From Girardia tigrina (Eukaryota), in assembly GCA_001938485.1 (NCBI GenBank), contig MQRK01231093.1:4722-54347 (forward strand): 49,626 bases of DNA, in the 5' to 3' direction. Of the stretch, positions 6,531 to 49,626 are shown piece by piece. The first letter of the stretch is position 1. The number at the start of each line of letters is the position of its first letter. The notes under the pieces were generated by a model. It did no database searches, was not told where the DNA came from, and saw nothing but the letters and a program-made list of their open reading frames with translations. A program made the translations under genes and the position numbers.

Positions 6531-6849
6531 CTGTACAAATATCATATATATTCATATAATTTACTCAATGCTCGTTTTAAAATAAAATCATTGTATATTT
6601 TTTGATGTTCCATAAATCATCATCGACAATTATAATTTGTTTAAAAAAACTTTTAAAAAAACCAAAAATAAAAATTTTAAATTAAGGTTTATTAAAATAT
6701 TTTTAAATTTTAAACAAATTTTTATTTCGTTAATAATGATTTTAAGTATTGAAAAGCCCTTATTTTCCATATTTTAAATGTTAATTAATAAATAGTTGTG
6801 TGTCTTATGAAATATGATTCACAGAACGAAATGTAGAATAGAAAACCCG

Positions 6850-7080
6850 TCCATTGAAACAGAAGAGACTCTATTTTTACAACGCACCCAGTAATCAAGA
6901 ACCTTATTCGTTCGATTAAGTTTGTAAATGCTCATTAATCCGGGCATTGATATGATGATTAGTCTCTCTAATGTATGTATACTCAAAAATGTAGCCAATA
7001 AATTGATAAACCAAATTAGGTAGCAATGGACACATTGTTTTCGATTTATTTGAAGGGCAGCTTTGCACTTTGGATGTCAC
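6850..7080 (-). mobile_element. Penelope-like GIY-YIG endonuclease remnant (in ACP5 intron)
   Basis: 'KVQSCPSNKSKTMCPLLPNLVYQFIGYIFEYTYIRETNHHINARINEHL' aligns by eye with 'KVQNMFSNKS..SDIVYQFTCNGCNATYIGETARH..RVQEH' of the Penelope copies at 17-19 kb. Confidence 0.75.
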
Positions 7081-7974
7081 TTATATCACTTTGATACTTC
7101 CTATATTTTTAACTACTCCTTATAAAATTTGATACAATTTGTAACATATATTAATAATAATGTTTATTTTAAATATATAACGGAGTCATATGAAAGCTAA
7201 GTTAATTTTGTTACTAACAAATGATCAGATATTATTGACAATAAGGTCTTGGCATATATGTACAAATAATATATAAATAATCACATAACTTTACAAAAAT
7301 GAAAACTGAACTTTGATCTTTACATGAAGAGATCGCAGGTCAAACTCAATTTTTTTTAAATTTTAATTACGTATTTAGTAATTAAAAATTTTAAGCGATA
7401 ATTAACATTCGCCTCATTTAACCGTTTGAGACTTTGCGAATTTACGTTTCAAATATTTCTGGAAATTTTATGAGATCAGTACTCACAAATAATTGTGGAA
7501 ATATTGTCTTGCTGGTGTCTTTAATTTGTCTTTAACAATAAATTATTATGTTATGGTTGTTATTTTGTATATTTTCCAATGACAGTGACTTATTCCTATA
7601 TCACACTTAGGGGAGTGAAGAATCTACAAAAATATTGTATCTCCTTGAAAAAACGGCGCCCTCGCATAAACTTCGCTCATAAAAGCCAAACATTTTAATA
7701 AACGACGCGCCGTTTATACGAAAGAATACGGTATTTATAAAATGTTAAAAATTAATCGAATCAATTTATATTTTTGACTAGAATATACAAAATTTTCACT
7801 CAAATATGTCTTAACATAAAAAGTGAAATAATAATTATAATACAATTTTATGAAATCTTTATATGTTATATATAAAATAATTTTTTAAAGTTTTTTTCCA
7901 TTTTATTTTAAATAATTCATTTTATTCTCTTAGATTTTTAGTCAGCCATTTAAAAATATTTTAACTTTTGTTAG

Positions 7975-12137: not shown

Positions 12138-12757
12138 AATAATATTATTAATAAAAAATTTTTTTTATAAAAACAACCACGTTTTTCAAGCATTACCAAT
12201 GCACTAAAAAGAGGAAAATAATTTTTTTCTAGACATGTGAGAAATTTTATACCTAACCAAAAACGTGGGGCGGATTTCTGAATTACTGCTTTTTCTCTTT
12301 ACTGCTTTGTAGTAACAATCGATCATTTCTATGCCCCACGTTTTTGGTTAGGTATAAAATTTCTCAAATGTCTAGAAAAAAATTATTTTCCTCTTTTTAG
12401 TGCATTGGTAATGCTTGAAAAATGTGGTTGTTTTTATAAAAATTTTTTTTTATTAATAATATTATTTAACTATTTTTAGTTATCATNNNNNNNNNNNNNN
12501 NNNNNNNNNNNNNNNNNNNNNNNNNNNNNNNNNNNNTGTATAAATTTGTAGATAATCGTAAGTGGTTTTTTGCAAAAAAAATTAGAAAAAATTATTTTTT
12601 TTTCAAAATTTTTTTTATAATATTGTATTGTCATCGGAAGCAAGCCTGTATAAAACATTCAGCTCAATTGGATGACTGAAAGTGGTCGAAAAATCAATCG
12701 CAAGATTTGTTCCAGACAAACAGACAAGAAAGCAAGCTAATAAAAACGTGGTAAAAA
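12138..12757 (-). mobile_element. Non-autonomous interspersed repeat with ~134-bp terminal fold-back (possibly Helentron/DINE-1-like)
   Basis: Near-perfect inverted arms 12138-12271 and 12333-12466 (61-nt spacer); 12620-12757 is the reverse complement of 30830-30960; one arm recurs at 31453-31569. Confidence 0.75.
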
Positions 12758-14499: not shown

Positions 14500-15320
14500 A
14501 TGTCAAATTTTCGTCGACCGTCAAAGTAAGATGTTGATAACTTGCTAGTTGATTTTGATGTCAGAAATAATCAATCCAGATTTCATATTTAATTTTAGAA
14601 TTGGCAAATCGGTGCTTCATCATCTTCAATGACTTACGTTTTGCTTAAGAAAAGCCACTCACAGAACCACACGTGTTCAAATAAGTTTAAGTTACAAAAA
14701 TCGTAAAAATTTGACATGAGCAGCTCAAAATTCCGAAAAACGACTAATTCTGAAATCGCGTTGTGATTTTTGATTAGAAATTGATTTATCTGGTCAATCA
14801 AACCTAAAGCAACGTCATTAGTCCAGTGTCAAGATAAATTTACTCAAGAAGGTAATGATTTGGGTTTGGTGGAACTTTGAAGATGTTTTGCACTTTGGGC
14901 TTGTTCTGAATAATTATGTCATCAATTCAGGACTATACTGCCAGCAATTAGATCGTGTTGCAAAAACTTGGTTGAGATATATCGAAATTTGGTCTTTCAA
15001 AAGAGTATTTATTTCAAAAGGATAATACGAAACCAGATTTTACTAAGAGGACTAAACAGAAGTTTGAAGAGTTCTACGATGTTAAAGTTTCGCCACATCT
15101 TGCATATATGTTTCCTCATCTGGCTATGGTCTTTACGATCGCTGCAGCACGTTTCGAAAGGTCACCGATTCGAATCTTTTGAGGAAGTTGCAGAAGTGCG
15201 TCAACAGTATTTTTGTAGAAGCCATCCGAGTGGTACTAATTCAAATTAAAACAAATTCAGATGCTTGCAGACCAATGGTAGAAGTAGTAGAAACTGATGG
15301 ATCGTACTTTGAGGAATAGT
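14500..15320 (+). mobile_element. Decayed mariner transposase (in last ACP5 intron)
   Basis: 'KKVMIWVWWNFEDVLHFGLVLNNYVINSGLYCQQLDRV' and 'LRSLQHVSKGHRFESFEEV' match the mariner core and C-terminus. Confidence 0.8.
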
Positions 15321-15836
15321 TTGTTTTGTTATTAATAAATAGTTTTTTTAATATTCATTTATAAGTGGTTACTTTAATTAGATATTGATTGAAAAAAAAT
15401 AGAATTCTTCGTATCTACCTTCGTACCTTTTTATTTGATTTCTTCAAATTATTTTAGAATTGTATTTAGATTATCGTAAAATATCAAATTAATTCATCTA
15501 TAATACAAATAAGTACATATTATTTATAATTTAAATTTTTTAATAAGAATTATTTTACGTGTCCGAATACATATGAATTTGGGTAGTATAACAGAACGTG
15601 TGGGATAACTTAGTATAAAAAAGAAAATAATTATTTAATGGTGAACGATATATTGATAACACATTAAAAACAATGACAACAAGTCAGTTATATTTTTCAA
15701 ATTTTGTGGCCCATCCTTTGACAAACTCATTTTGTAGGTTCATTAAATATAATGCCTTAGATTATAATTTATTTACGGAATTACAACCTTTTCTACTATA
15801 ATTTTACGTATAAATACTTAATACTAATAATTTTAG

Positions 15837-16085
15837 CATATTCAAGTACTCTATGGAGCAAATATGTCTATGAATTATTTTACTATTGGAGCGAGTAACT
15901 TTTTTGATAACAGTAAAAAGAATGAAGACAAAATTCCCAAAGGCAGTTTAAAATTCCATTGGTTAAATTATCATCGCAAAGGAGGTTTTGCATCAGTCGA
16001 CGTTACAGAGAATTTTTTGACTGTAACGTTCCTATCGACGAACAATAAAACTCTCTATACAACAAAAATAAAACCAAGGATTTGA
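15837..16085 (+). CDS. ACP5: ACP5-like terminal coding exon
   Basis: HIQVLYGANMSMNYFTIGASNF...IPKGSLKFHW...GGFASVDVTENFLTVTFLSTNNKTLYTTKIKPRI*; acceptor ttttag, phase 0; matches the TRAP C-terminal pattern. Confidence 0.92.
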   Translation, partial: HIQVLYGANMSMNYFTIGASNFFDNSKKNEDKIPKGSLKFHWLNYHRKGGFASVDVTENFLTVTFLSTNNKTLYTTKIKPRI

Positions 16086-16185
16086 CTTTCATGAAATAAC
16101 ATCAATGGACATTGAAGTTGTATTTACTTTTAATCGAATAAATAATGAATAAATCTGTCTAACTGTTTTTGATAATCATTTGATG

Positions 16186-16219
<34 letters not shown>

Positions 16220-16269
16220 NNNNNNNNNNNNNNNNNNNNNNNNNNNNNNNNNNNNNNNNNNNNNNNNNN

Positions 16270-16301
<32 letters not shown>

Positions 16302-16439
16302 CGAAAATATAATTTGATTAAAGCTTTTTTTATATAATTATTGGACATGTTTTAATGTTTACATACATCATCATCAGTAATTTTTGGATGTTTAGTATAT
16401 GAATATTGAATTGTTTGAATAATACAATTTTAATAGAAC

Positions 16440-17293
16440 CAACGATAGCTTCTGTTTTTCTTTCAAAGATTGAAAATAAAATTAAACTGTTTGATGTAAA
16501 TCAACCTTTAGTATCTAAACGATACGTTGATGATATATTCCTATTACGAGACTGGAATTTATAGGAAGCAAACTGATACAGGTTTATATACTTCACCAGA
16601 TAGGTTTTGTGAACTTAAGTATAAGAGAAACATGATTAAAGGTTTAATTTATCGTTCCTGGTCGTTGTCTTCCATTTTTGTTAAATCTGTAAAAAGTGCT
16701 AATAAACTAAGTTCGTTGTTAAATAAGAATGGCTATTCTAAATCTTTTCTAGAAAAATTAATAAAGGAAACAGTAGATAAAATAATTTTGAAAGATTTTT
16801 CGAAAAATCAGAGTTTGGCTTCTCCTGATGGATCTAAGAAAGAAATCGAAGGATCATTAGATATGAATAATATGCCCAAATATTGTTTAATTGTACCTTA
16901 TTCTTAAGGATTTAAAAACTTTATAAATGCATTGTTAAAAGCAACTTACAATGAATTAAATTTAAAAATTATATCACGATCTCATAAAGTTCAAAATATG
17001 TTCAGTAATAAATCTATTACACCTTTAACACTTTGTTCTGATATTGTTTATCAATTCACATGTAATGGGTGCAATGCCACATACATCGGAGAGACTGCCC
17101 GTCATCGCTGCAAACGAGTCCAGGAACACAGTCAAAAAGGGGGAAAGAGTAATATTGCTGAGCATAAAAAAACGTGTAAATGTAATATGAGCATAAATGA
17201 TTTTAAGATTTTGTGCAAGCATTTTAAAAATTATTGGGAGAGAGTGTCATGTGAAGCATTGTTGATAAGATCATGTGATCCTAAAATCAATGT
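16440..17293 (+). mobile_element. Penelope-like element fragment (RT C-terminal part + GIY-YIG endonuclease), 3' truncated
   Basis: 'KRYVDDIF', 'TGIYRKQTDTGLY...KYKRNMIKGLIYRSW...KNGYSK', 'IVPYS', 'IVYQFTCNGCNATYIGETARH..RVQEH...EALLI...PKIN'. Confidence 0.92.
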
Positions 17294-17896
17294 ACTTTGG
17301 TTATTAAAAGAAGATTTTCATTCGGACTTCCTTTTATCAATAATTAAAATTAAGTTTAATATTTTTAAAAATTAAATATTTTATAAAAATTTTGAAAATG
17401 GTTCGAATAATCATGATTAAAAATAAATAATAAAACCAATTAGAACGATGACAAAGGATGAAAGACCTTCTGAGAGTCGTAATGACTCTAAATGTGATAG
17501 TAATAAAAATTCAAATGATACTTTGTCTCAATGTTCTTAATAATGAAAATAATGTTTCATTTTAATTTAATCTTAAATATTGTTTTTACCTAGATCTTGT
17601 AAATCTATATAAATCTTGTAAATCTATGTTATATTTAACTATTTAATTCGCAGTCCGCAAATTAAAATAAACTATCTCATAATTTTAATCATAAAATATT
17701 ATTTCAACGAATTCTGTTCAGTGTTAAATTTACAGAAAATATAATTTTCTTTTGTTATTTAATTGTTTTCTACATTTTTAAGGATTTAATGTACCCCTGA
17801 TTTTTTTAGACAATGTATTATAAATTTAAAAACCGATCACACATTGTCATGAGACGGAACTATACTATGTAAATGTAAAAATAATATGTGTATATA

Positions 17897-18212
17897 TGTG
17901 ATGCTGGCCACCGGACCGAGCTGTCGCAACTAGCATCTCTTTAATGTGCCGGAATTTGGTGCCCGATAAGATCGGCATATCGATTCAACGGCGGCTGTAT
18001 CCCAGTCGGTTCCAGCGAGTAACAGCAACAGACTCAGTAGACCGGTTAGTCATGTCGCGGATTGACCGTACGGTTTCTATCTGTCCGATTAGTGCGGTCA
18101 TGTCGACCAGTTGAACACCATCGAATCGGGAGGGATAATACGGGGTTCAGTCAGACCGGTTCGTGTTGTCATTGAGCAGTGTGATTCCGCAAATGACGCA
18201 TGGTGTTGCGCG
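17897..18212 (-). repeat. Solo-LTR-like GC-rich segment related to the LTR at 24244-24505
   Basis: Its minus-strand 3' end 'cacattaaagagatgct...ctcggtccggtggccagcatcaca' resembles 'cacaattaagaggtgct...ctcggtccggcagtcggctcttca' just before the PBS at 24507. Right boundary uncertain. Confidence 0.5.
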
Positions 18213-18939
18213 TTATTATTTTTTAGTTATTTCCAAGTAAGTAACACGTACTTGTAAAAATTTATTTTTATTTGAGAAATATGAAATTGTTACACCAAAT
18301 TATTTTGTGTTGCTTTAATCAAACAAAAGTTAAAAGTAAAAGTTTTTTCAATTTTTTTTCATTTTTTTGTCAGTTTTCCTGAGCACTACAATATATTTTC
18401 TGCGTCCACCCTGTATATAATCTATATAATTAATTATATTTTATTAAAAGTGTTTATTGAAAAGGAATTATTTATAAATGTAATTATTCATTTTCTTTTA
18501 TATCATAAATGTATAATTTTGTGTGATCAAAGCATTACTACGAACAAAGCAGATGAATTATTTTAAAGCATGTTTAAAATTTTAGATATATGATTAAATC
18601 GTTTTTAACTATTTACAAAGTTTTCAATTACTTTATTTTATTACAATAAAGAAGCCATAATGGTGAAACTAGTTTGTTTTATTACTAAATGTAATGAGAA
18701 ATGGCTTTTCTTTTAATTTAGTAATACTTATCTTGAAAAATAAATAATACAGTGCACTCCGTATATATCGAAGATATGTTATTGTACTGACATATAATGA
18801 ATGTTGAGAATAATTGTAAACTGTTGGCTGACTGATAAATCCAAGTGTATAAAATTTAATAATAATCATGATGATAATTATTTATTAATATTATTCAAAA
18901 TTAATCTTTTTTTTACATTAAAAATCAGTGATGTTTTTG

Positions 18940-19892
18940 TTTAAAAACAAATAAACACCATTTGAAAATATATTTCGTGATAATATATTTCGACGGTTTA
19001 ACCGTCATCATCAGATCACTGATTATGTTCTTTTTTACTGCTTTTATATAAGAAATGAATGATTATGCAATCAATTACGTAAGTCTAATCGAAAACGCTT
19101 AACAAATTAGTTGATAGTGCTGTTTGAACATTGATTTTAGGATCACATGATCTTATCAACAATGCTTCACATGACACTCTCTCCCAATAATTTTTAAAAT
19201 GCTTGCACAAAATCTTAAAATCATTTATGCTCATATTACATTTACACGTTTTTTTATGCTCAGCAATATTACTCTTTCCCCCTTTTTGACTGTGTTCCTG
19301 GACTCGTTTGCAGCGATGACGGGCAGTCTCTCCGATGTATGTGGCATTGCACCCATTACATGTGAATTGATAAACAATGTCCGAACACAATCCTAAAGGA
19401 GTATGTGATTTATTGCAAAACATATTCTCAACTTTAAATGATTGAGAAATAATTTTTAAATTTAAAATGTTAAATTCTTGAGGTGTTTAAAACCCTCGGA
19501 GTAAGATAAGCTTAGAGTATACCCAGGTGTAAAGCAGTTTTCAATGTTTAAACTATTAATTTTTTCATTTTTGATTTTTTCTTTTTCGATTATTCTATCT
19601 ACAGTCTCACGAATGAGTCTGTCTATGATGGACTTAGAGTAACCGTTATTATTCAATAACTTGCGCAATGTATCAATACTTTTAATAGACTTTGAAAACG
19701 TGGAAGAAAGATATCGATACATAAAATATAGTACAGTTTTTATGATACGATCTCTTAAGGTTAGTATTTCAGAATTAAACTAACTGATGGAGCGTATCGA
19801 TCAGTGAATTTACTTCTGCAAATATTGATCGAGAAACAAGAGCAGTATAACAAACCTTTGATCATATTCCTTTTATATTTAAACTCACAAAA
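18940..19892 (-). mobile_element. 5'-truncated Penelope-like element (RT thumb, GIY-YIG ORF end at 19085, 3' pLTR with hammerhead)
   Basis: 'FCEFKYKRNMIKGLLY', 'NNGYSKS', 'LSYSEGF', ORF 19423-19085 with the GIY-YIG motif; ~125-bp unrelated insert near 19720-19845. Confidence 0.92.
18977..19019 (-). ncRNA. Minimal type I hammerhead ribozyme in Penelope pLTR
   Basis: Minus strand GUGAU-CUGAUGA-U-GACGG-UUAAA-CCGUC-GAA-AUAUAU-U-AUCAC: helix I GUGAU/AUCAC, intact core, helix II GACGG/CCGUC, palindromic helix III. Confidence 0.85.
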
Positions 19893-20236
19893 AAGGGGGA
19901 AAGAGTAATATTGCTGAGCATAAAAAAACGTGTAAATGTAATATGAGCATAAATGATTTTAAGATTTTGTACAAGCATTTTAAAAATTATTGGGAGAGAG
20001 TGTCATGTGAAGCATTGTTGATAAGATCATGTGATATAAAATCAATGTTCAAACAGCACTCTCAACTAATTTGTTAAAAGTTTTCGATTATACTTACGTA
20101 ATTGATTGCATAATCATTCATTTCTTATATAAAAGCAATAAAAAAGAATATAATCATTGATCTGATGATGACGGTTAAACCGTCGAAATATATTATCCTA
20201 AAATATATTTTTAAATGGCGTTTATTTGTTTTTAAT
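19890..20236 (+). repeat. Inverted Penelope pseudo-LTR (endonuclease 3' end + 3' UTR)
   Basis: Highly similar reverse complement of ~18940-19287; directly abuts the 5' truncation point of the minus-strand copy. Confidence 0.9.
20157..20199 (+). ncRNA. Minimal type I hammerhead ribozyme (second copy, weakened helix I)
   Basis: ttGAT-CTGATGA-T-GACGG-TTAAA-CCGTC-GAA-ATATAT-T-ATCct; core and helix II identical to the 18977-19019 copy; helix I only 3 bp. Confidence 0.8.
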
Positions 20237-20515
20237 AAAAAATTGCCATCTTCTTTCAAGTTTATTTGTAATATTTTTGTTTCTCTCTATTTTTTTGTGA
20301 TTTATCCCCCTTGTAATCTATTAACTATCTTGACAATTTTTTTTATCTGTTATTATCAACGGTTGTACATTTAATTATAATTTTTATAGTTTCCATCAAT
20401 ACTTTATTTTAGTTATTGTATTAATCATGAGATTGCGTTGTCGAGTTAGTGAAGATCTTTGACTCATTAGCTCGTTTCCGTAATAGCCTAAGCATCACCT
20501 TCCATTACCTAAGCA

Positions 20516-20560
<45 letters not shown>

Positions 20561-20845
20561 ATTATAATTGCGACCTGGAGCGTCGGTCAAAAGCCAAATA
20601 ATTTTTCTTTAATAATAAAAAAAACAAAAATGATGAAAATGACAAAAAAATAACAAAAACAATGAAAAAAATGGAAACAATGAATAAAAAAATAAGAAAG
20701 GTGGATAATACACTACTTAGGCTATATCGAAGTTTTTGGCAAATGCCTCTTCGATATATGCGGAGTTCACTGTATTCTATTTTGTCTTTAATTTCAATTA
20801 TAATTGCATTACTATTTCTCTTTATGAAAACATTTAAGATTGGGC

Positions 20846-21217
20846 TTAAATATAATCAATATTTACTATTCTGCCTCTGTCTAAGGGACAAGTTGGATTT
20901 ATAAAGTACCAATCTGTGAAACAATTTATACACAGTCGGTGATTACAATCTCTTATCACAACGACTTCTTCTAGAAGAATCTTGAAGCAAATTGGACATT
21001 CATCATTTGCATTTTTCTCTAAACTTTTCTTATATTTTCTTTTTTCTAAATATGTCGAATAATTAATTATATTATATACTTGTTTTGATTGACTTTTTTC
21101 TAAAGAAATTCGATTTCTATTTTTGATATTTAATTGATTGTATTTTTTATTAATTTTGATGTGTAATAATTTATTGAATTGATATTTTTGATTACTTTTA
21201 TTTATTTTAGTCTTCAT
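20846..21217 (-). CDS. Small intronless RING-finger protein (C3HC3D variant), putative E3 ligase
   Basis: CPIC-x11-CNH-x2-CINC-x3-W-x6-CPLDR at the C-terminus of a 123-aa ORF with a K/N-rich N-terminus. Confidence 0.7.
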   Translation of the reverse strand: MKTKINKSNQKYQFNKLLHIKINKKYNQLNIKNRNRISLEKSQSKQVYNIINYSTYLEKRKYKKSLEKNANDECPICFKILLEEVVVIRDCNHRLCINCFTDWYFINPTCPLDRGRIVNIDYI

Positions 21218-21859
21218 ATAATTTCGATATGTTAAACTTTGTTGACAGCAAAAGATACGTATGAAAGATGTATAAAATAAATCAAATATGGAAATAATTA
21301 TTATAATAATATTTATTTCTTGAATTTATATTGGTTCAAATTAAAAATAAATTTTTATAATTTTTTGAATTTTTTCTATTTTTATTTGTTAAAGTCTAAT
21401 ATCAAAATATAATATCCAATTCCCCAGCATCAAATTTTCGTAAATTTAAGTAAAAGTAAAATCATTTTTGATAGATAGGGTAAGGTTGCTCAAGTGACAT
21501 ATTACTTTATACCGTAAGCAAGCCCCTTTGTAAATTTTAGTTCACAAAAATTTATTTTATTTACATGGTATTTTGATTAGATTCTGATTAGTGTTCTTGG
21601 GAACTGAGAAGTTGAGCAGCAGATGGTTCTTTGATGTTCATTTGTACTGAGGTGACACATCAGCCTATGTACACAAATAGTTACCCATCTGTCAGATATA
21701 GGTTGAAGTGTTTATGTTTGCAGCATAGATGAGAAAGAGCTAACAATTAAACACTTATACTTATTACTCTGAATAGAGTATTACCATATATCAGCTAACA
21801 CAATAGGACATTGACAGAAAAAAAGTAAAAACTGCTAACACGATGATATAAAAATTAAA

Positions 21860-22160
21860 TTTGTTACTCAACACTGTTAATATTGGTATTATGTATTGTT
21901 TAAGTAGCATTTCGTGTTTGCGGGAGTGTCCTGATGGAGAAATTTCAGACATTTTCAAGTCGGTGGCCTATCCATGTGTAATTTCTGTAAGGTCAGACAT
22001 GACTCAATACAAGATATCGTTGCCAAGGAACTATCCGCTTTTACCGACGCAGAATTCTATGTTAATGAGGTGCGCCGGTTTGTGACATCACACTTAAGAG
22101 TGGACCGCCAAATATGTTTTCGGGTGAAGCGTATAATTCATCTTATAGATATGAAATGCC
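21860..22160 (+). mobile_element. Non-LTR retrotransposon remnant, restriction-like endonuclease type (R2/NeSL-like)
   Basis: Degraded zinc knuckle 'SCLRECPDGEISDIF' followed by 'RHDSIQDIVAKEL...FYVN...LRVDRQI...IIHLIDMKC', the RHD...PD...D.K pattern. Confidence 0.55.
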
Positions 22161-22317
22161 TGAAATCAGTTTATTGTCTGAAACCATTTTTATTGGTTAT
22201 TTTCTACCTTTTTATTATATTTTATTCATTTTTATATAGAATGCATATTATAATGGTTTATTGTCCTAAGAAAAAGTTAACAGGTATATATATATATATA
22301 TAATACATAATAATGTA

Positions 22318-22935
22318 CAGGGTAATCATAAAGTTATTACCGGGTTTTAAACTGTAATAACTTTTGAATTATTTGGTATTTCCTTTTCATTATAAAGACA
22401 TCTTGAAGTTTATTCTTTAAAATTTAATTAAAGGTACATTTTGTTTAAATGTATTAATAATTGTTATTGTTTTAAGCGTAATATTCAAAATGGATGTAAA
22501 TCAGCGTGTAAAAATTGTTATTTTATTTGCGAAGCATGAGTCAGTGACTTTAGTAAGAAGAGAAATTCAACGACTTAAATGGAAAAATATTTCAATCGTA
22601 AAAAGTATTAGAAGCATCTTCAAAAAGTTTGAAGAAACAGGAAGCATTCTAAATGCCCCAAAATCTGGAAGACCACCAATTGATGATGAAAAGGAAAATG
22701 AGATAGCAGAAAGTTTTAAGCAAGAACCCCAGTCTTCTATCAGGAAATCGTTGTCAACTCTGAATTGCTCTAAGGGAACTGTTCAAAAATTATTACGAAA
22801 CGACTTAAAAATGTTACCCTACAGAATTCATGCCACACAACTTTTAGATGAAGAAGATTGCGCTCTTAGACGTATTATGTGTGAAACGTTAATTCAATCG
22901 ATAGACGCAGATGAAAATTTTCTTAGTAACCGAAA
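22318..22935 (+). mobile_element. Tc1/mariner-superfamily element: 5' TIR and truncated transposase (DUF4817-like HTH)
   Basis: TA|CAGGGT.. terminus at 22316-22323; ORF from 22490 'ESVTLVRRE...KKFEETGSILNAPKSGRP...SSIRK...KGTVQKLLRNDLKMLPYRI...DENFL' breaks before the first catalytic D. Confidence 0.85.
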
Positions 22936-24243
22936 GAACTTTTGGAGCATATTGTTTATTGTATCGTTTAAAAAAAATTGAATAGTTTCTAGGCTTCTGA
23001 AAAATAAACTCAATCCTGTACTTTCATGGAGTCTGCTTTTTATCTTTTTAGCCCACCCTAGGTGTAAAACCGTTCCGGTACCTATGGTTACTGTACTAAC
23101 TGAACATATTTATTTCCCATTGAATTACCAAGAAATTGTGAAATCATACAATTGCTCAATCCTTAATTTTCTCTATAAAACTTTTATCATCTTGATATGT
23201 CGACAATTATTTATTAATCATCAGATAAAAGGCACCTATCTCTTCCTATAATCAACAATAATCTCACCCGACTGGGACTCAGGCTATGGTTGTGCGGAGT
23301 AGGGACGAGGCGGACATGGACAAGATTGAGAACGCGCAGTTGCACGATTTGGGCCGGCGCAGGTGATCAGGAGTTTTTTTACGATAAATTCTGAACGTCA
23401 GCGTTCATGAATTTGATGATAAAAATGATTTTAAACCTGTTTAAATTTTGATGTAAATTATTATTTATGTTAATTTGTGTCGCGTGGGATTCGGTATTGT
23501 TGTAAAGATTATATACATGATGACTGTTTGAATTGGAAAATAACATCGAGATAAAAATAATATTAATGTTTGAATTTTATATAAAAAAATATTATTGTGT
23601 TTGTGTGAAAAATGATTATTAATGTAAATTATTAGTATCAATATTATTTGTTTAAATGGAAAAAAGTAATTTTGGATGGTGAAAAATGTCGAATGTTGAA
23701 ATTTCAAATGAAATAAAGTTTTTTTCGGAATTTGAGTTTTTATTCTCTTGAGCAATAATTTGGAAGCGATCGAACAATATTTATTTTACATTTTTTAGAA
23801 GAAAAGATAATTTTGAAATTATTTTTTTCCATGGACAATTTTCAGCGATTTTTTGAACCTTTTGTGAGGTAAATGAAGTCGCAAAAGAATTAAATTCATT
23901 AATAAAGAGTGAGCATTCCAATATCTCAAAATTCCATGAAACGATATCGTTAGGTTTTCCGATCCATAATTATGTTACAAAAAAATTATTTCTGATGATG
24001 TATAGCAAATACCGGATGATGAGAGTAATATGAACATTTCTGAGTGTGGTGCTCCGGTCAAACGACCGAAAATAAAAAAACTAAAAAAAATTAATTTAAT
24101 TAATTAATAAACTAAAAATTACTAAAAACATGGTTCAAATTCAAATTGTATTGAAATAAATCTTTTGATCGTCTCCATTATATGCATCAATTGTTAAATA
24201 GTTTTCTCAAAGATTTAGATTTAAGATATTTTCCGATTATATT

Positions 24244-24505
24244 TCGTCGCACTCGGTCCAACAATACAGTGATTCGACCTCATCCATCAGATCGATCCAA
24301 TCGAACTTGATACCGCCACATATCAACCCGTGATGCACTATGATCACACTGTATACCACTGACGGGGCAAACCGGTGTCGTGTGCGGTCACTGGGCTGAT
24401 AACGGGGTACGGGAAGATGCGGCCGATCAATTCCTCTATCCGACATTTTCCCCCACAATTAAGAGGTGCTCGCCACCATTACTCGGTCCGGCAGTCGGCT
24501 CTTCA
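24244..24505 (+). repeat. 5' LTR of a Ty3/gypsy element
   Basis: Abrupt GC-rich block ending in ..TCA immediately before a PBS; left edge approximate. Confidence 0.65.
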
Positions 24506-24506
24506 T

Positions 24507-24524
24507 TGGTGTAAGAAGTGGGAT
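24507..24524 (+). promoter_or_regulatory. Primer-binding site complementary to the tRNA-Leu 3' end
   Basis: TGGTGTAAGAAGTGGGAT differs at one position from TGGTGTCAGAAGTGGGAT (complement of the tRNA-Leu(CAA)-type 3' end, recalled from memory). Confidence 0.75.
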
Positions 24525-25033
24525 CAACCGATCCAACACAGGTAACACACACACACTACAATCACCACACATGCACCGCAACGAACACTCTCACGCACCA
24601 CATTTAACGATTTCACTCTCACACAGCATTCGACGATCACATACGAATTCACCACATTGAAAAAATACTGTAAACAATAACTCTATCACACACCACAATA
24701 AAAATCAACACTGAATGGGACATTGTAACCACACTCTAATTGTCCACCGAGTGTCTTATCGAACACATCATAAACATCCTCACCAGCCTGTCGGGACATT
24801 CAGTCACACTCTATAAGCCGTTATAACCTCTGCGCTCCAATCTTTCTTTTAAACAATACGGGATTACTACGGCACCACCATCACCTGCCACTTCACATTG
24901 CCAGGTGGCGGAGATCCCGACAATACCACAGACTCCTCAGCGCTCACTGGAGGGACACTTTTACAAGTCCCCGTTCATGCAGTTATACTCCCTGCACACT
25001 ATTCTTCCTTGACAATGATGGTTCACCGCGACA

Positions 25034-25870
25034 GTGGCTCGGACTCATGGACTTTCGATTGAAATAGGTCAAGAGCCAATACTCTCGGTTCCATCACCTT
25101 ACAGCTGCACTCCCAGTGGAACAACTGAAAGAGAACTTCTGGCGATCATGGCACACAACTGGACAAACGATCAGTTGTGCCAACACTTAATGAAGCCACA
25201 CTCGCAGACTTTCGATGCTCACTTCAAGAAATATATCAGAACTCAACCGATGGTAGACATGAGACTCACTCAGTTCCTGAACAAGATGACCGCCGATCTT
25301 CATGCGCTCAACCCGGCACTGGTCAGTGATGATGCAAATCAGTGGCTGTTTCGGAAGCTCTTCCTCCAAGCCTTACCGGACACACAACGGGCCATACTGC
25401 CCGCGTCCGAAAATATACCGCTCGTGGAGCTCTCCAGGATCGTGGACAAAATCGCCGAAACCCTTGGGCACGACAAGGGCCACTGCTATCCGATCATGTC
25501 GACCACCAGCGACAGCCGCCACTTACCGAGTTCGAGAGCACCGAAAGACTCACACTCCACAGAGATAACTGCACTGTCCGAAAAGATAGCAGCCCTGCAG
25601 GCAAGTCTGGCCGCAATCAATGGGGCCCGCCAGCACTCTAAAAGCAGCATTACATCACACAATGAGGAGACAACATACAGATCACAAGAGTTGTCGGGCC
25701 TAAGATCAAACCTCCGATGCTTCGATGGCACACTGGTACAACCATCATGCCGAAACCCATTTGGAAGGACCCACGCACTGTGTTACTTTCATCGACGGTT
25801 TGGAAAGAGCCAAAAAGTGCCAGCCAGGATACACCTACCCCTGCAAAGAATCCAACATGCAATTGCCTGA
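25034..25870 (+). mobile_element. Ty3/gypsy gag remnant
   Basis: 'LFRKLFLQALPDTQRAIL...LVELSRIVDKIAE...LSEKIAALQ...LCYFHRRFG' then frameshifted 'AKKCQPGYTYP'; lies downstream of LTR+PBS; no pol follows. Confidence 0.8.
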
Positions 25871-27495
25871 TGTATGCATTTGGCACGTCCTGTTTGGTGT
25901 TGACGCCGGCACCTTACTGAGAGTGACAGGAATCCCCATATATATTTCGATGATAAACTCTGGTAATATAATCTTCCTTATGATATCCCCCGATCCTCAA
26001 TCAACCCCATGACACCAGGGTATCGCGGCCGCGCTGCCCTTGCTCTTCTATCAATGGAAAATTACAATTAGCAGGAGATCGAGAAGTGGGTTGCAGGGAT
26101 TCAGGACTAGATCGAGTTGTCAACAAAGTGCTGGATACATGGACGGCGTTGAAATTGGCGATCAATTGCAGCGGCTACGAGAGACAGTCGACGATGGGAG
26201 TCAAGGGGCTCATATTCGAGCATATCGGGCGAATGAGCGCACCGGACGAGTTAGAGAACTGATTGGATAAGCGAGTGGATTTAGTTTGCAAGAGCGGCAG
26301 CTAGAAAGAGATGATGGCTGTGCTGATGGGCTACAGGGGTCTGAGTAAGGCGGGGCTGACATAAATGTGTGGATTGGAGGGTACGAGAGACTATGAGAAC
26401 AGCGGAAAGTGAGTTGTCCGAGGAAGCGGGCTTGTTCTGCTGCAAGGTGACCGCGGGCTCGTGTAATCTCAAGAATGGTCTAGAGTCGCACTTCTCGAGC
26501 GATGTGAGGATGCTGCTGGTGATCGTGGCGGTGACGATCAAGAACAAGGTGTTAGGCAAGCTGGTAGTGGTTACGGGAGTCATACTGTGTTTGAGGGACA
26601 CCAAAGGCGGCAGGAAGTGCTCTGACGGTGTATGACATTGTGTTTGGGCAGGCGGGCGACAACACCAGTTGACTATTCTCTGGCCGCAATTGAATTTTGT
26701 CTACTGTTGGAGCCGAATTAAATTTCAGGAACAAGCCGAACTCGGTTACTCAGGGTGTTGTCTAAGTGCCAAAAATTTTATAAGCTTAACTCCCTTGCTG
26801 AATCAATGAATGTGCCTTGATGACAAGGTGTGTTGTATATTATAAAATCTGCTTGTTTAAATCAGTAATTTGCCGATTTAGTATTTTATTTAAATACATT
26901 CTGTAGCTCGTCGTGCTTGTTCTTTACAAACTCCTGTAAATACTGTTGTTTAAATAATATAAAGCGTGAGCAACTTCTTTCAATTTAATAAATAGTACTG
27001 AACATTTCTACAATTGTTCATTTATTTATTGGCAATGTCAGAAAATACTTACATTCGTAAAAGAATTAAAAAAAATTTTCATAAAATTTTTTCTAACAAC
27101 TTACGACAGAATATTTTTTGAAATATTTACCGGTTCTTTAAATTGCTTTCATTTTTTTCGTTTCTTTGTTTAATTAAAATCAAAAGCGCAATTTATTTAA
27201 AATTAAATTTGATTTTCTTCACCGATATTTTTTTTATTATTAAAAATTAAATTCGATCGTTATTTTTGCTTAAAGAATTTTTTCTATTTGTTATTTATCA
27301 ATTTTTTTTAAAAAATTATTCTCTGAAAAATCAAATGAAAAATATCACAAAAACGGATTTTACTTTTCCTGAAAATGGTAATTCATCGATGTTGAAAGTG
27401 GAACATTTTCTAATACAAGGTAAATCGAATTGGATTTCTGTGAATGTTTTATTTTCTACCAAATTTGATTGATTAAAATATTTTACTTATGTAAT

Positions 27496-28620: not shown

Positions 28621-29638
28621 AATAATTATTCTATTTTAGTGAATTTTATTGGATAATAATTATTTTTGTATTAATTTTATGTTACATATTAATTGAAGAT
28701 ATTTATAATGGAGACTGCTTTACTTTTCCCGTTTTAGATATTAATCAATGGATAATAGTGTCTGATCATCAATGATTCACAATACAACCTCTCATAATAT
28801 GCATCAAAATTCTTCTGAAGAATAAAAAACTCGTCTTTTGAATTCGACGAGTCTCTTACTTTGCAGTGATCGAAAACCCTACTCGATCTACTCTATTGTG
28901 AAAGTTCACTTATTCGTGTCTTGAGACGAATATTTGTCTTTCAAATGTACGAGTTTTGAAACGAGTGACCATTTAATTTTGAACACCAAATTAACTTTCA
29001 CTATATTACGATCACTAATAGGCCTCCTCCTTCTTGTACGGGACTAATGAATCTTAGAACCTTTCAGGAGCCTGAGTCGGAGTCTCATGCCGAAACATTC
29101 AACAGATTACGGGCCTCACCATTATGTGTATTTCGTGATCCTTCTCAGGAGATCATTGCCTTTTCAGTAGTGGATTGTGAGCCCATACAACTCGTACTTT
29201 GTTTGTCTGCAATACTAACAAGACAAGCTTTGGACACTTTAGCCTAGAGGGTTCAAGCCCCCCTAGTTTCCCAGGGACACCACGTGGAGGTATGTGCGAC
29301 TTGTTTAACACAGGTCACCAATTTAACGGGTCCCTAAGAACCCTAATATGATTTTCGACACTTCTTTTATTATCACAAGTTGAATTGTCTTCAGAACAAA
29401 TATAATTAATCTTTGTAACTTTGCATCATACAATGGTTTAATGATCTTTATCCAAAATATTTGAACTAATTTGAACCAGAAAAATCGCTAAAAAATATTT
29501 GCTAGAAAATTCATTATTTAAAATGAAATAATCATTCATTATTTTAAAATATGAATTTCCGTTATTGATTAAAAAATTTCAAATAAAATGTATCAAATTA
29601 TTTAAAAATTTACAAAAATATTAAGTTAAATAGCTTTA

Positions 29639-29809: not shown

Positions 29810-30510
29810 TTAAAATACCAATCAGCCATCTGTATAGGAGAGACACAATGCCAAATCAACATACAGCATAAAACATTTCAAACATTCCTCTCACATTTTA
29901 TTGGGGGTTTTCGATTTCACGCAAGGAAGTCTTTCACATTAAATGTTACTGACACTATTTTAACATAAGCGATATTTTTAAATGCTATTCTTAAATCTTC
30001 TTAAATCTTCTAAATAGGGAATTTTTAATTTTAATGTGTTTAATATTCTTTCTTGGTCTCGTGAGTGTGGACTCTGTCAAAATTAACCTAATTTTAGCCT
30101 TTATTTTTTTCGACCACATTTTATTATTGAAACGTTTTCTTAGAATATCAAGTGCATCACATTTACTGTTTTACTGGAGGAAACTGTCCATACTCTATGA
30201 ATTAACCCCTAGATAATACATCTTCGTATTTCTCTTCACAGTAGCTTATTGATGTTGTATACTGTCCGCTTGTTGTACGTAACTATTCCGTTTTATATTT
30301 AGTATTAGTTCGTTTGGCAATAATATCCAGGAACGGAAGTTTATTATTAACCTTAAATTCTGTTGTAAAGTTAAACATTATTATGAAATAATTTAAGGAA
30401 GTTCATAAAGGGTTCTATCATAGAATATCTATGTAGACTTTGTCTTGGAAAACTAAGAAAATATCATCCACATTCCTTTAATACACAGATGGTCGTTTCC
30501 CAGTATATAG
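29810..30510 (-). mobile_element. Decayed Penelope-like RT fragment
   Basis: 'RPSVY*RNVDDIFLVF', '[19 protein letters not shown]', 'GQYTTSISYCEEKY', 'GLIHRVWTVSS'. Its tail (~29815-29870) recurs at ~45055-45110 (+). Confidence 0.8.
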
Positions 30511-30829
30511 GTCCATGTGAAGATTGAATCGTGATTAAAGAAGGGAACTGTCTTTCTGAAGGTACTATTTCTCATTGAAAAGAAACAAAAAAATCAATAA
30601 GATAATTTTATAAATGTTAACTTAAAATATAATTTGTATTGAACAAATGATTTCAAAAGTCAGTAATTAAAGAAACTAACAATTTGTAAGATTAGTATAC
30701 TTCTATATTTAATAAGCTATAAGTAATTTAAAGGTTTGAGTAAATTTTTGTTCGCAGTTATTCGTTAAATTATGTCTAAGATTAAAAAAAAATAAATAAA
30801 AAGAATGACAGGTATTGTATAAGATTTTA

Positions 30830-39988: not shown

Positions 39989-40784
39989 TGTATTATTATA
40001 TTATAGTTATATATCACAGCATTAACTTGACTCATCATATTAAATGCAATCTATGTGGTACATGTATACACTAAGCATAGACAGGCTGTAATCTATATGT
40101 AGTATGTAAACTATTTAGAATTGCTGATTCTCTAAATAAACTCCTTTTTGGTACAAAACCATGTCAATAAGTTCTACACTTTCAAGGCTAGTTCAGAGTA
40201 ATCCTCAATGGAAAATGTTGAATAACGTGCTGTTGGGAGCCTAGGCTAGCCTTTTGATCCATCCAGTTTACCCACAATATCACCAATATTAGTATTCAAT
40301 GTAATAAAGTCATATATGATTATGATCAACTTATTAATACTATGGATATATGAATATAAACCATAAATAGTCTGTTACGCAATAGAAAGTTGAACAATGG
40401 CGTAATCATCCAACCTTTTACATAAATGTCATGTTTTCTGTTATCTTGACTATTATATGTTATGTATTATGATTATACATAACTATATTCTTATCAAGTA
40501 TATAAGTATATGACTAGAGATAATTATACTATAATATATGTATTACATGTATCTTCTTCATTGAAAAATACATATATTACATGAAAATCATGTATATGTC
40601 TATGTTTTTTAGTATTTTATGTTAATTTTTATATACACATTCATATAAAACTTATAAATAGTTCACATACTACATATAGATTACAGCATGTATATGCTTA
40701 GTGTATACATGTAACACATAAATTGCATTTACTATGATGAGTCAAGTTAATTCTGTGATTATATAACTATAATATAATAATACA
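39989..40784. mobile_element. Fold-back/MITE-like element with ~130-bp inverted arms
   Basis: 39989-40117 and 40655-40784 are reverse complements with scattered mismatches; ~540-bp spacer. Confidence 0.75.
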
Positions 40785-49099: not shown

Positions 49100-49626
49100 C
49101 ACTTTAGACAGTGATAAAACTTCTAGAACTTGAGTTGGAACTTCTGCATCACCCTTTATACTGAATAGATTTAGTTTTTGTTCTGCAAATACTCTTCTTA
49201 AACGCTCTAAATCCTTCAGTATATGGAATTTTAATGATTTGTTTGTATTCTTCAGTATTTTCTTCTTTTAATTGTTTTTTAACTCGTGCATCTGTACATA
49301 ATTTGTCTAATGTTACCCTAATGTTGTGTTCTATTTGCTTGTTTGTATACATATTGTCCCTCAAGCGCCTTCAAAGAATATTTAAACCCTGATTTGAAAT
49401 TTCAAAACTGGACGACAAATTCCAAACTCTGTGAACAAGCCCTTTGATCATACGCTCTCTGTATTTTTCCTCACAAAAACTCTGTGGTGTTGTGTAAAGC
49501 CTGTATTTGTTGCCTTTCTGAATAATTCAGTTTTATAGCCTCCATTCATCTTAGTGACAAGAATGTCCAGAAAGGGAAGTTTATTATCTACTTCCAATTC
49601 TGTGGTAAATTTAATATTCGGATGAA
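49100..49626 (-). mobile_element. Penelope-like RT C-terminal fragment (runs off the window end)
   Basis: '[23 protein letters not shown]', '[30 protein letters not shown]', 'IKIPYTEGF'. Confidence 0.88.

Follow-up and report, generated by a model that had tools for sequence, protein, structure and literature searches.

The minimal hammerhead ribozyme of a Penelope element in Girardia tigrina seems to hold the likely start codon of the element's open reading frame (ORF) behind a predicted TATA-initiator promoter, and we consider it somewhat probable that this ribozyme self-cleaves, weakly and as a protein-assisted dimer, the cut depriving the mRNA of its predicted cap and its start codon. The motif lies in a stretch of 49,626 nucleotides (contig MQRK01231093.1), here called the window. 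An earlier note on this DNA had described it as an intact Penelope hammerhead with several unusual traits; the class stands and the unusual traits do not, and the overlap with the start codon and the TATA box upstream had been overlooked. The processing of element transcripts proposed there is plausible from the sequence.

The motif on the minus strand is, judged by its letters and its relatives, a real and typical member of a known ribozyme class, the Penelope minimal type I hammerheads. Its sequence matches the quotation in the earlier note exactly, and the distance of about 65 nt from the GIY-YIG stop is likewise correct, with 65 nt between the stop codon at 19087-19085 and helix I. Its parts, assigned from the sequence (helix III from palindrome counts and predicted folds, the whole motif also from folding and genome counts), are as follows:

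18977..19019, minus strand: minimal type I hammerhead of the subfamily with a 5-bp helix I; cleavage predicted between 18982 and 18981
19019-19015, minus strand: helix I, 5' arm
19014-19008, minus strand: hammerhead core
19007, minus strand: extra base U9.1
19006-18992, minus strand: helix II, 5 bp and a 5-nt loop
18991-18989, minus strand: GAA
18983..18988, minus strand: palindromic helix III AUAUAU, predicted dimer interface
18982, minus strand: H17, a U
18981-18977, minus strand: helix I, 3' arm

The conserved core CUGANGA ... GAAA ... UH of the published consensus is present, the U at 19007 is the additional base that separates position 9 from 10.1, G19006 and C18992 form the G10.1-C11.1 pair, and the palindromic 15.1-16.1 segment AUAUAU stands in for a stable helix III. 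Core, 9.1 base, palindrome and place in the pLTR all support the class and the expectation of a dimer. The extra U, the AUAUAU helix III and the AUU triplet, which had been singled out as unusual, were already published: the available text of Cervera and De la Pena (2014, PMC4209133) counts a base between 9 and 10.1 among the conserved traits of PLE minimal hammerheads, and by our own count of its Fig. S3 the extra base occurs in 54 of 56 rows, AUAUAU in 6 (5 Drosophila species) and AUU in 5, with AUAUAU and AUU together in three Drosophila species. The 43-nt motif folds with a z score of -2.7 (2 of 200 shuffles were as good), and the predicted minimum fold of the 43-nt piece is not the hammerhead fold. 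A covariance-model search of 15000-26000 returned no hammerhead among 13 Rfam matches at E <= 10. Scanning the window for full motifs gave two, 18977-19019 and, overlooked in the earlier note, 20157-20199, both within one element, which has the following parts:

18934..19893, minus strand: Penelope/Poseidon-type copy, truncated at its 5' end and broken in frame near 19472 (blastn and tblastn against the loci L259, L266 and L061)
19085..19486, minus strand: GIY-YIG endonuclease (EN) end of the ORF with CCHH residues, stop codon at 19087-19085 (Pfam PF01541, E 5e-5)
19890..20272, plus strand: inverted 5'-truncated partner, head to head, with a longer 3' tail (repeat and blast comparison)
20157..20199, plus strand: second hammerhead motif; helix I of 3 bp, 3' arm of the majority type, C3 at 20162 (sequence and genome counts)
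18967..18976, minus strand: second copy of the 10-nt GAAATATATT repeat, coding for a repeated KYI (predicted folds)

The EN family is large, all 150 scored genome matches showing 89-100% amino acid identity, and locus L061 carries a 520-aa frame with both RVT_1 (E 3e-11) and GIY-YIG (E 7e-5), that is, a single ORF with the RT followed by a C-terminal EN. By eye, the translations show the CCHH residues in the EN and the DKG motif and lack the CX2-5CxxC linker, and the family thus fits the Penelope/Poseidon clade, for which the accessible part of a preprint gives CCHH, DKG and the absence of that linker as criteria (bioRxiv 10.1101/2021.04.23.441226); the assignment is by motifs and domains. Other hallmarks of Penelope/Poseidon elements are also present, namely partial tandems, an inverted 5'-truncated copy and a 30-40 bp tail on one end. 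The motif is located in the pLTR after the EN domain, and an EN ORF precedes it in 97 of the 110 copies of the main cluster. Genomic 3' ends fall 35-39 nt past the cut site in 43 of 114 copies and 65-84 nt past it in 42; the window shows one 3' end of each cluster, which is the known tail pattern. The window copy of the hammerhead is most likely an inactive fossil, and probably inert because it stands in a broken 3' fragment with its partner motif on the opposite strand and no ORF downstream; for the same reason of opposite strands, an in-cis dimer of the copies at 18977-19019 and 20157-20199 was rejected.

Several further features of the window were recorded. Inside the minus-strand copy, about 125 bases (19712-19836) are unrelated to the family and matchless elsewhere in the 313 loci collected. 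At 16433-17408 (plus strand) lies a third, mosaic-looking PLE fragment without a hammerhead, approximately 70-76% identical to the family at 16543-16955, 94% at 16956-17293 and, beyond 17293, 76-87% identical to the post-hammerhead region of another family. Older PLE RT or EN fragments, all on the minus strand, occupy 49179-49624, 30205-30549, 28737-28952 and 6922-7107 with 36-53% amino acid identity to the family ORF; the window scan found no intact hammerhead near the two older EN pieces, and perhaps a decayed one near 6600. At 20846-21325 (minus strand), 570 nt past the inverted copy, an open frame encodes a RING finger (PF13639, E 4e-8). A frame at 22421-22981 (plus strand) matches HTH_32 weakly (E 1e-4) and may belong to a DNA transposon, and MITE-like terminal inverted repeats, 134 and 108 nt long, lie at 12138-12466 and 40013-40759. 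The host genome is AT-rich.

In the genome, the pattern of the core followed by CGAAATATATH has 3,496 matches against 0 for a reversed-pattern control, core patterns with an AUUAAU helix III have 2,607 (control 0) and those with a G/C-containing helix III 14,766 (control 152), while core matches with A at position 7 number 15,204 (control 82). By form, exact matches amount to 1,712 for the 3-bp helix I, 442 for the 5-bp helix I, which is therefore a minority subfamily, and 59 for a form with a 15-nt in-frame deletion, the latter being short copies derived by deletion between the GAAATATATT repeats. From 237 motifs in 313 loci we sorted 19 families, which are related to one another. AUU is the commonest triplet in the genome (8 of 19 families). 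Six different helix III palindromes occur across the 19 families, partly fixed by the search patterns; with the four inner bases left free, 87 of 100 among the matches listed were palindromic when counted by eye. Pair 4 of helix II, on which no filter acted, is Watson-Crick in 17 of the 19 families, with two pair types. A shuffle test of the palindromes (38/38 pairs) was set aside because the search patterns inflate its result, and the count with free inner bases serves as the unbiased check.

Within the family the picture is flat. Among 94 of 121 EN-selected copies (the other 27 were left out because they were truncated, had gaps or did not reach across both flanks), differences amount to 2.3% in the core (15/645), 4.1% in helix II, 1.1% in the palindrome (5/448), 3.9% in the upstream spacer, 2.4% in the EN coding region (329/13,504) and 2.5% downstream. 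The core is thus not clearly more conserved than its flanks in these 94 copies, contrary to what the earlier note expected of a working ribozyme, in a comparison that is ill-posed for dead copies; flat conservation is expected because copies decay after insertion. Covariation, also raised there, is found between families, and the conservation signal, as far as sequences tell, sits between families, where structure is kept as letters change. Two abundant families with GUC triplets (L191-L219) end in (TA)n and have little or no EN similarity upstream, one without a TATA box at the usual distance and the other mostly with a TATAG variant; they are perhaps another PLE clade or non-autonomous elements. 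Three loci (L254, L256 and L257) carry internally deleted units, with the ORF N-terminus joined to the EN end between two pLTRs, and are possible non-autonomous derivatives.

The sequence of the core itself holds the second layer of this motif:

19006..19011, minus strand: two in-frame ATGs in the core, A6-U7-G8 and A9-U9.1-G10.1, the likely start of the next unit's ORF (frame of locus L250)

The extra U of the motif is the U of an AUG. From the core ATG, L250 has 250 open codons, and in L250 and L266 the frame runs into the DKG and RT motifs; in the window copy it spans 28 codons and then leaves the element. Hammerheads lie 2,558 nt apart in L259, which gives the unit length, and one unit apart also in L260. 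In such tandem units of about 2.56 kb the ORF stop and the next ATG are separated by about 74 nt, with a TATA box within the gap, and the hammerhead makes up the first codons of the next ORF. This layout does not match a non-LTR retrozyme, made of non-coding tandem repeats: an EN ORF precedes the motif, and the next ORF begins within it. The predicted cut falls 26 nt downstream of the A of the second ATG (A9), and the frame has its next Met at residue 99. All search patterns left position 9.1 free, and it carries U in 19 of 19 families and in 230 of 237 copies. A conserved N-terminal motif is in frame with the A9 ATG in 7 of the 19 families; in 2 further families it is in frame with an ATG of helix II, and 10 of 19 were unscored. 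Among 188 copies of the window type the helix II span is 15 in 183, 18 in 3, 12 in 1 and 16 in 1, length changes that preserve the frame in 187 of 188, and the 15-nt deletion is also in frame. From these sequences it is likely that the hammerhead contains the start codon of the element's ORF.

Hammerheads one unit apart, as in L259 and L260, also suit a model in which the ribozyme cuts tandem read-through into unit-length RNA, which is then circularised and reverse transcribed, so that the overlap with the start codon is mere compactness. This is the model of PMC4209133 in its available text, and the geometry of a dimer between 5' and 3' copies agrees with it. The main insertion template of PAc, the Poseidon element of Anolis carolinensis, is an uncut RNA according to the accessible text of Frangieh et al. 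(2024, PMC11167929), and the genomic 3' ends described above cluster past the cut site, not at it. We regard the model as rather unlikely to be the main explanation, although it is compatible with a cut that removes translation.

Upstream of the core we predict a promoter from the family comparison:

19041..19050, minus strand: TATA box TATATAAAAG
19018..19022, minus strand: initiator-like TCAGT, in which 19020 is the predicted +1, 30 nt downstream of the TATA box's first T
19063..19082, minus strand: two bZIP-like palindromic sites (19082-19075 and 19070-19063), possible upstream promoter elements

In 12 of 19 families, where shuffles predict 0.91, at least half of the copies have TATA[AT]A at -40..-30 from C3, in a bin picked after seeing the data and among families that are related; each of four other bins gave 0-1 of 19 families. 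The initiator-like sequence, which we take to resemble the Inr consensus, stands about 30 nt past the TATA box and directly before helix I, with similar spacing in other families by eye. A bZIP-like site is present at -54 to -68 in 7 of the 19 family representatives, and we presume that the palindromic sites are those of a bZIP-type factor. In some relatives (L299-L303, L269, L276 and others) a 5' leader of only about 9-15 nt is predicted, and in some families the start-codon context resembles what we take to be the TISU short-leader element, a likeness partly forced by the core letters.

The same stretch could be read as a 60-nt intron (19078-19019) ending in helix I, with splicing that remodels the ribozyme, as in the Penelope of D. 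virilis (PMC4209133, available text). A donor-like GTAAGT, contained in the commonest 10-mer (71 of 94 copies), and a CAG at the start of helix I would suit it. GTRAG, however, is found in only 2 of 19 family representatives and at different offsets, the donor-like site lies inside a palindromic bZIP-like site, a polypyrimidine tract is absent, and among the matches listed (15 of 17 joints, in contigs that cannot prove absence) no such joint appeared. We consider an intron very improbable.

Returning to cleavage behind a predicted promoter, the events might run as follows. Transcription would start 3-6 nt before the core, which would explain a helix I of 2-5 bp, and the uncut RNA would be translated from the AUG at A6 or A9. 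With element protein bound, two hammerheads, either the 5' and the 3' copy on a single tandem transcript or one on each of two RNAs, would pair via AUAUAU. Cleavage would follow the AUU, 26 nt past the A9 AUG. Lacking cap and start codon, the product would no longer be translated and could give unit-length RNA. Because the start codon lies inside the motif behind the predicted promoter, self-cutting would likely switch off translation of the cut RNA.

The predicted energies are unfavourable for such a dimer without help. The active dimer is predicted at -19.0 to -21.8 kcal/mol, or -12.0 for the 3-bp form, against -23.2 to -40.4 for two folded monomers, which makes it 4 to 24 kcal/mol less stable in the five fragments tested, core tertiary contacts being uncounted. 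The difference is mainly due to the monomer hairpin with the downstream repeat; in predicted folds the second GAAATATATT copy can form a hairpin with helix III and GAAA. A monomeric fold with a second AUAUAU as partner, judged by eye, would place a U-U pair beside the cut site and was not favoured. Two RNA-seq runs (assembled contigs; 4 of 18 listed runs were examined) yielded short pieces only, below 95% identity. High pLTR depth in run X6 was rejected as a sign of expression, of a start or of a cut, because a genomic excess of 3' fragments fits it and X6 may be DNA.

These energies, and a helix I of only 2-3 bp in most families, raise the question of whether the fold is kept instead as a binding or folding platform for the element protein, or by coding and promoter constraints, with in vivo cleavage very rare. 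AUU is a slower triplet than GUC, which points the same way. The available text of a paper on hammerhead rates holds nothing on AUU triplets (PMC11875169), and that on PAc gives no in vivo ends (PMC11167929). Against this reading, core matches with A at position 7 far outnumber their control, the palindromes vary yet stay paired, and a C3G/G8C rescue marks real catalysis in PAc (PMC11167929, accessible text). We hold it to be quite unlikely.

Beyond probable weak cleavage, we offer tentatively, and as a possibility that we would not call probable, that a single cassette of about 80 nt comprises TATA box, cap site, hammerhead and AUG. In this cassette the start site would set the length of helix I, the role of U9.1 as the U of an AUG would keep it fixed, and dimer cleavage triggered by the element's own protein would take away cap and start codon, a feedback switch from message to template. 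In the searched literature no paper ties promoter, start codon and cleavage together as a switch of translation; Lunse et al. (RNA Biol 14:1499) may already cover variants or the AUG overlap. Taken singly, the motif matters little, since several thousand decayed copies of this already described class of ribozyme exist here. The value is in the comparison of promoter position, start codon and ribozyme across at least 19 diverged families, and such a switch, if true, would answer what Penelope hammerheads are for, a role stated as unclear in the accessible part of bioRxiv 10.1101/2021.04.23.441226.

Among known systems, compared here through the available parts of each source, the metazoan PLE hammerheads share the core, the 9.1 base, G10.1-C11.1, a palindromic helix III, a short helix I and the pLTR location (PMC4209133). 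The closest rows of its Fig. S3 are those of Schmidtea mediterranea and Drosophila rhopaloa, elegans, ficusphila and virilis. The Schmidtea row has U9.1 and a 15-nt helix II span and, re-parsed because its GAAA column is separated in the PDF text, AUAUAU, AUU and a 3-bp Watson-Crick helix I. The Girardia motif differs from the others in a family-specific helix II and in a U9.1 that is fixed here but in the minority across animals (12 of 56 Fig. S3 rows by our own count). D. virilis has a helix II bulge and an intron before the hammerhead, neither of which is seen in the present motif, and its Penelope uses a TATA-less internal promoter (PMC2377424); because of this promoter and intron, the layout of TATA box, hammerhead and AUG is not general. 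Non-LTR retrozymes carry type I hammerheads related to those of PLE pLTRs and, unlike the present elements, are non-autonomous tandem repeats (bioRxiv 10.64898/2026.07.22.740005).

The two nearest parallels concern the start codon and the promoter, and in both respects there is precedent, the geometry of AUG and cut site being known from PAc (PMC11167929) and a putative TATA box with Inr from rotifer pLTRs (PMC3846280). PAc shares the arrangement of start codon and cut site, with the cut 26 nt downstream; its cleavage was measured and needed the element's protein, whereas cleavage here is predicted from sequence. Core mutants of PAc still inserted in vitro, so that cleavage was dispensable, no RNA-seq reads ended at the cut site, and the text searched gives no TATA box or start site (PMC11167929). 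The Penelope pLTRs of Adineta vaga were described before hammerheads were reported in such elements, and in the available text their promoter is not related to a ribozyme (Arkhipova et al. 2013, PMC3846280). Like the Girardia elements, they have an Inr-like sequence with a putative TATA box 20 bp ahead of it, a pLTR that takes in the first ORF codons, and an inverted pLTR with a tail (PMC3846280).
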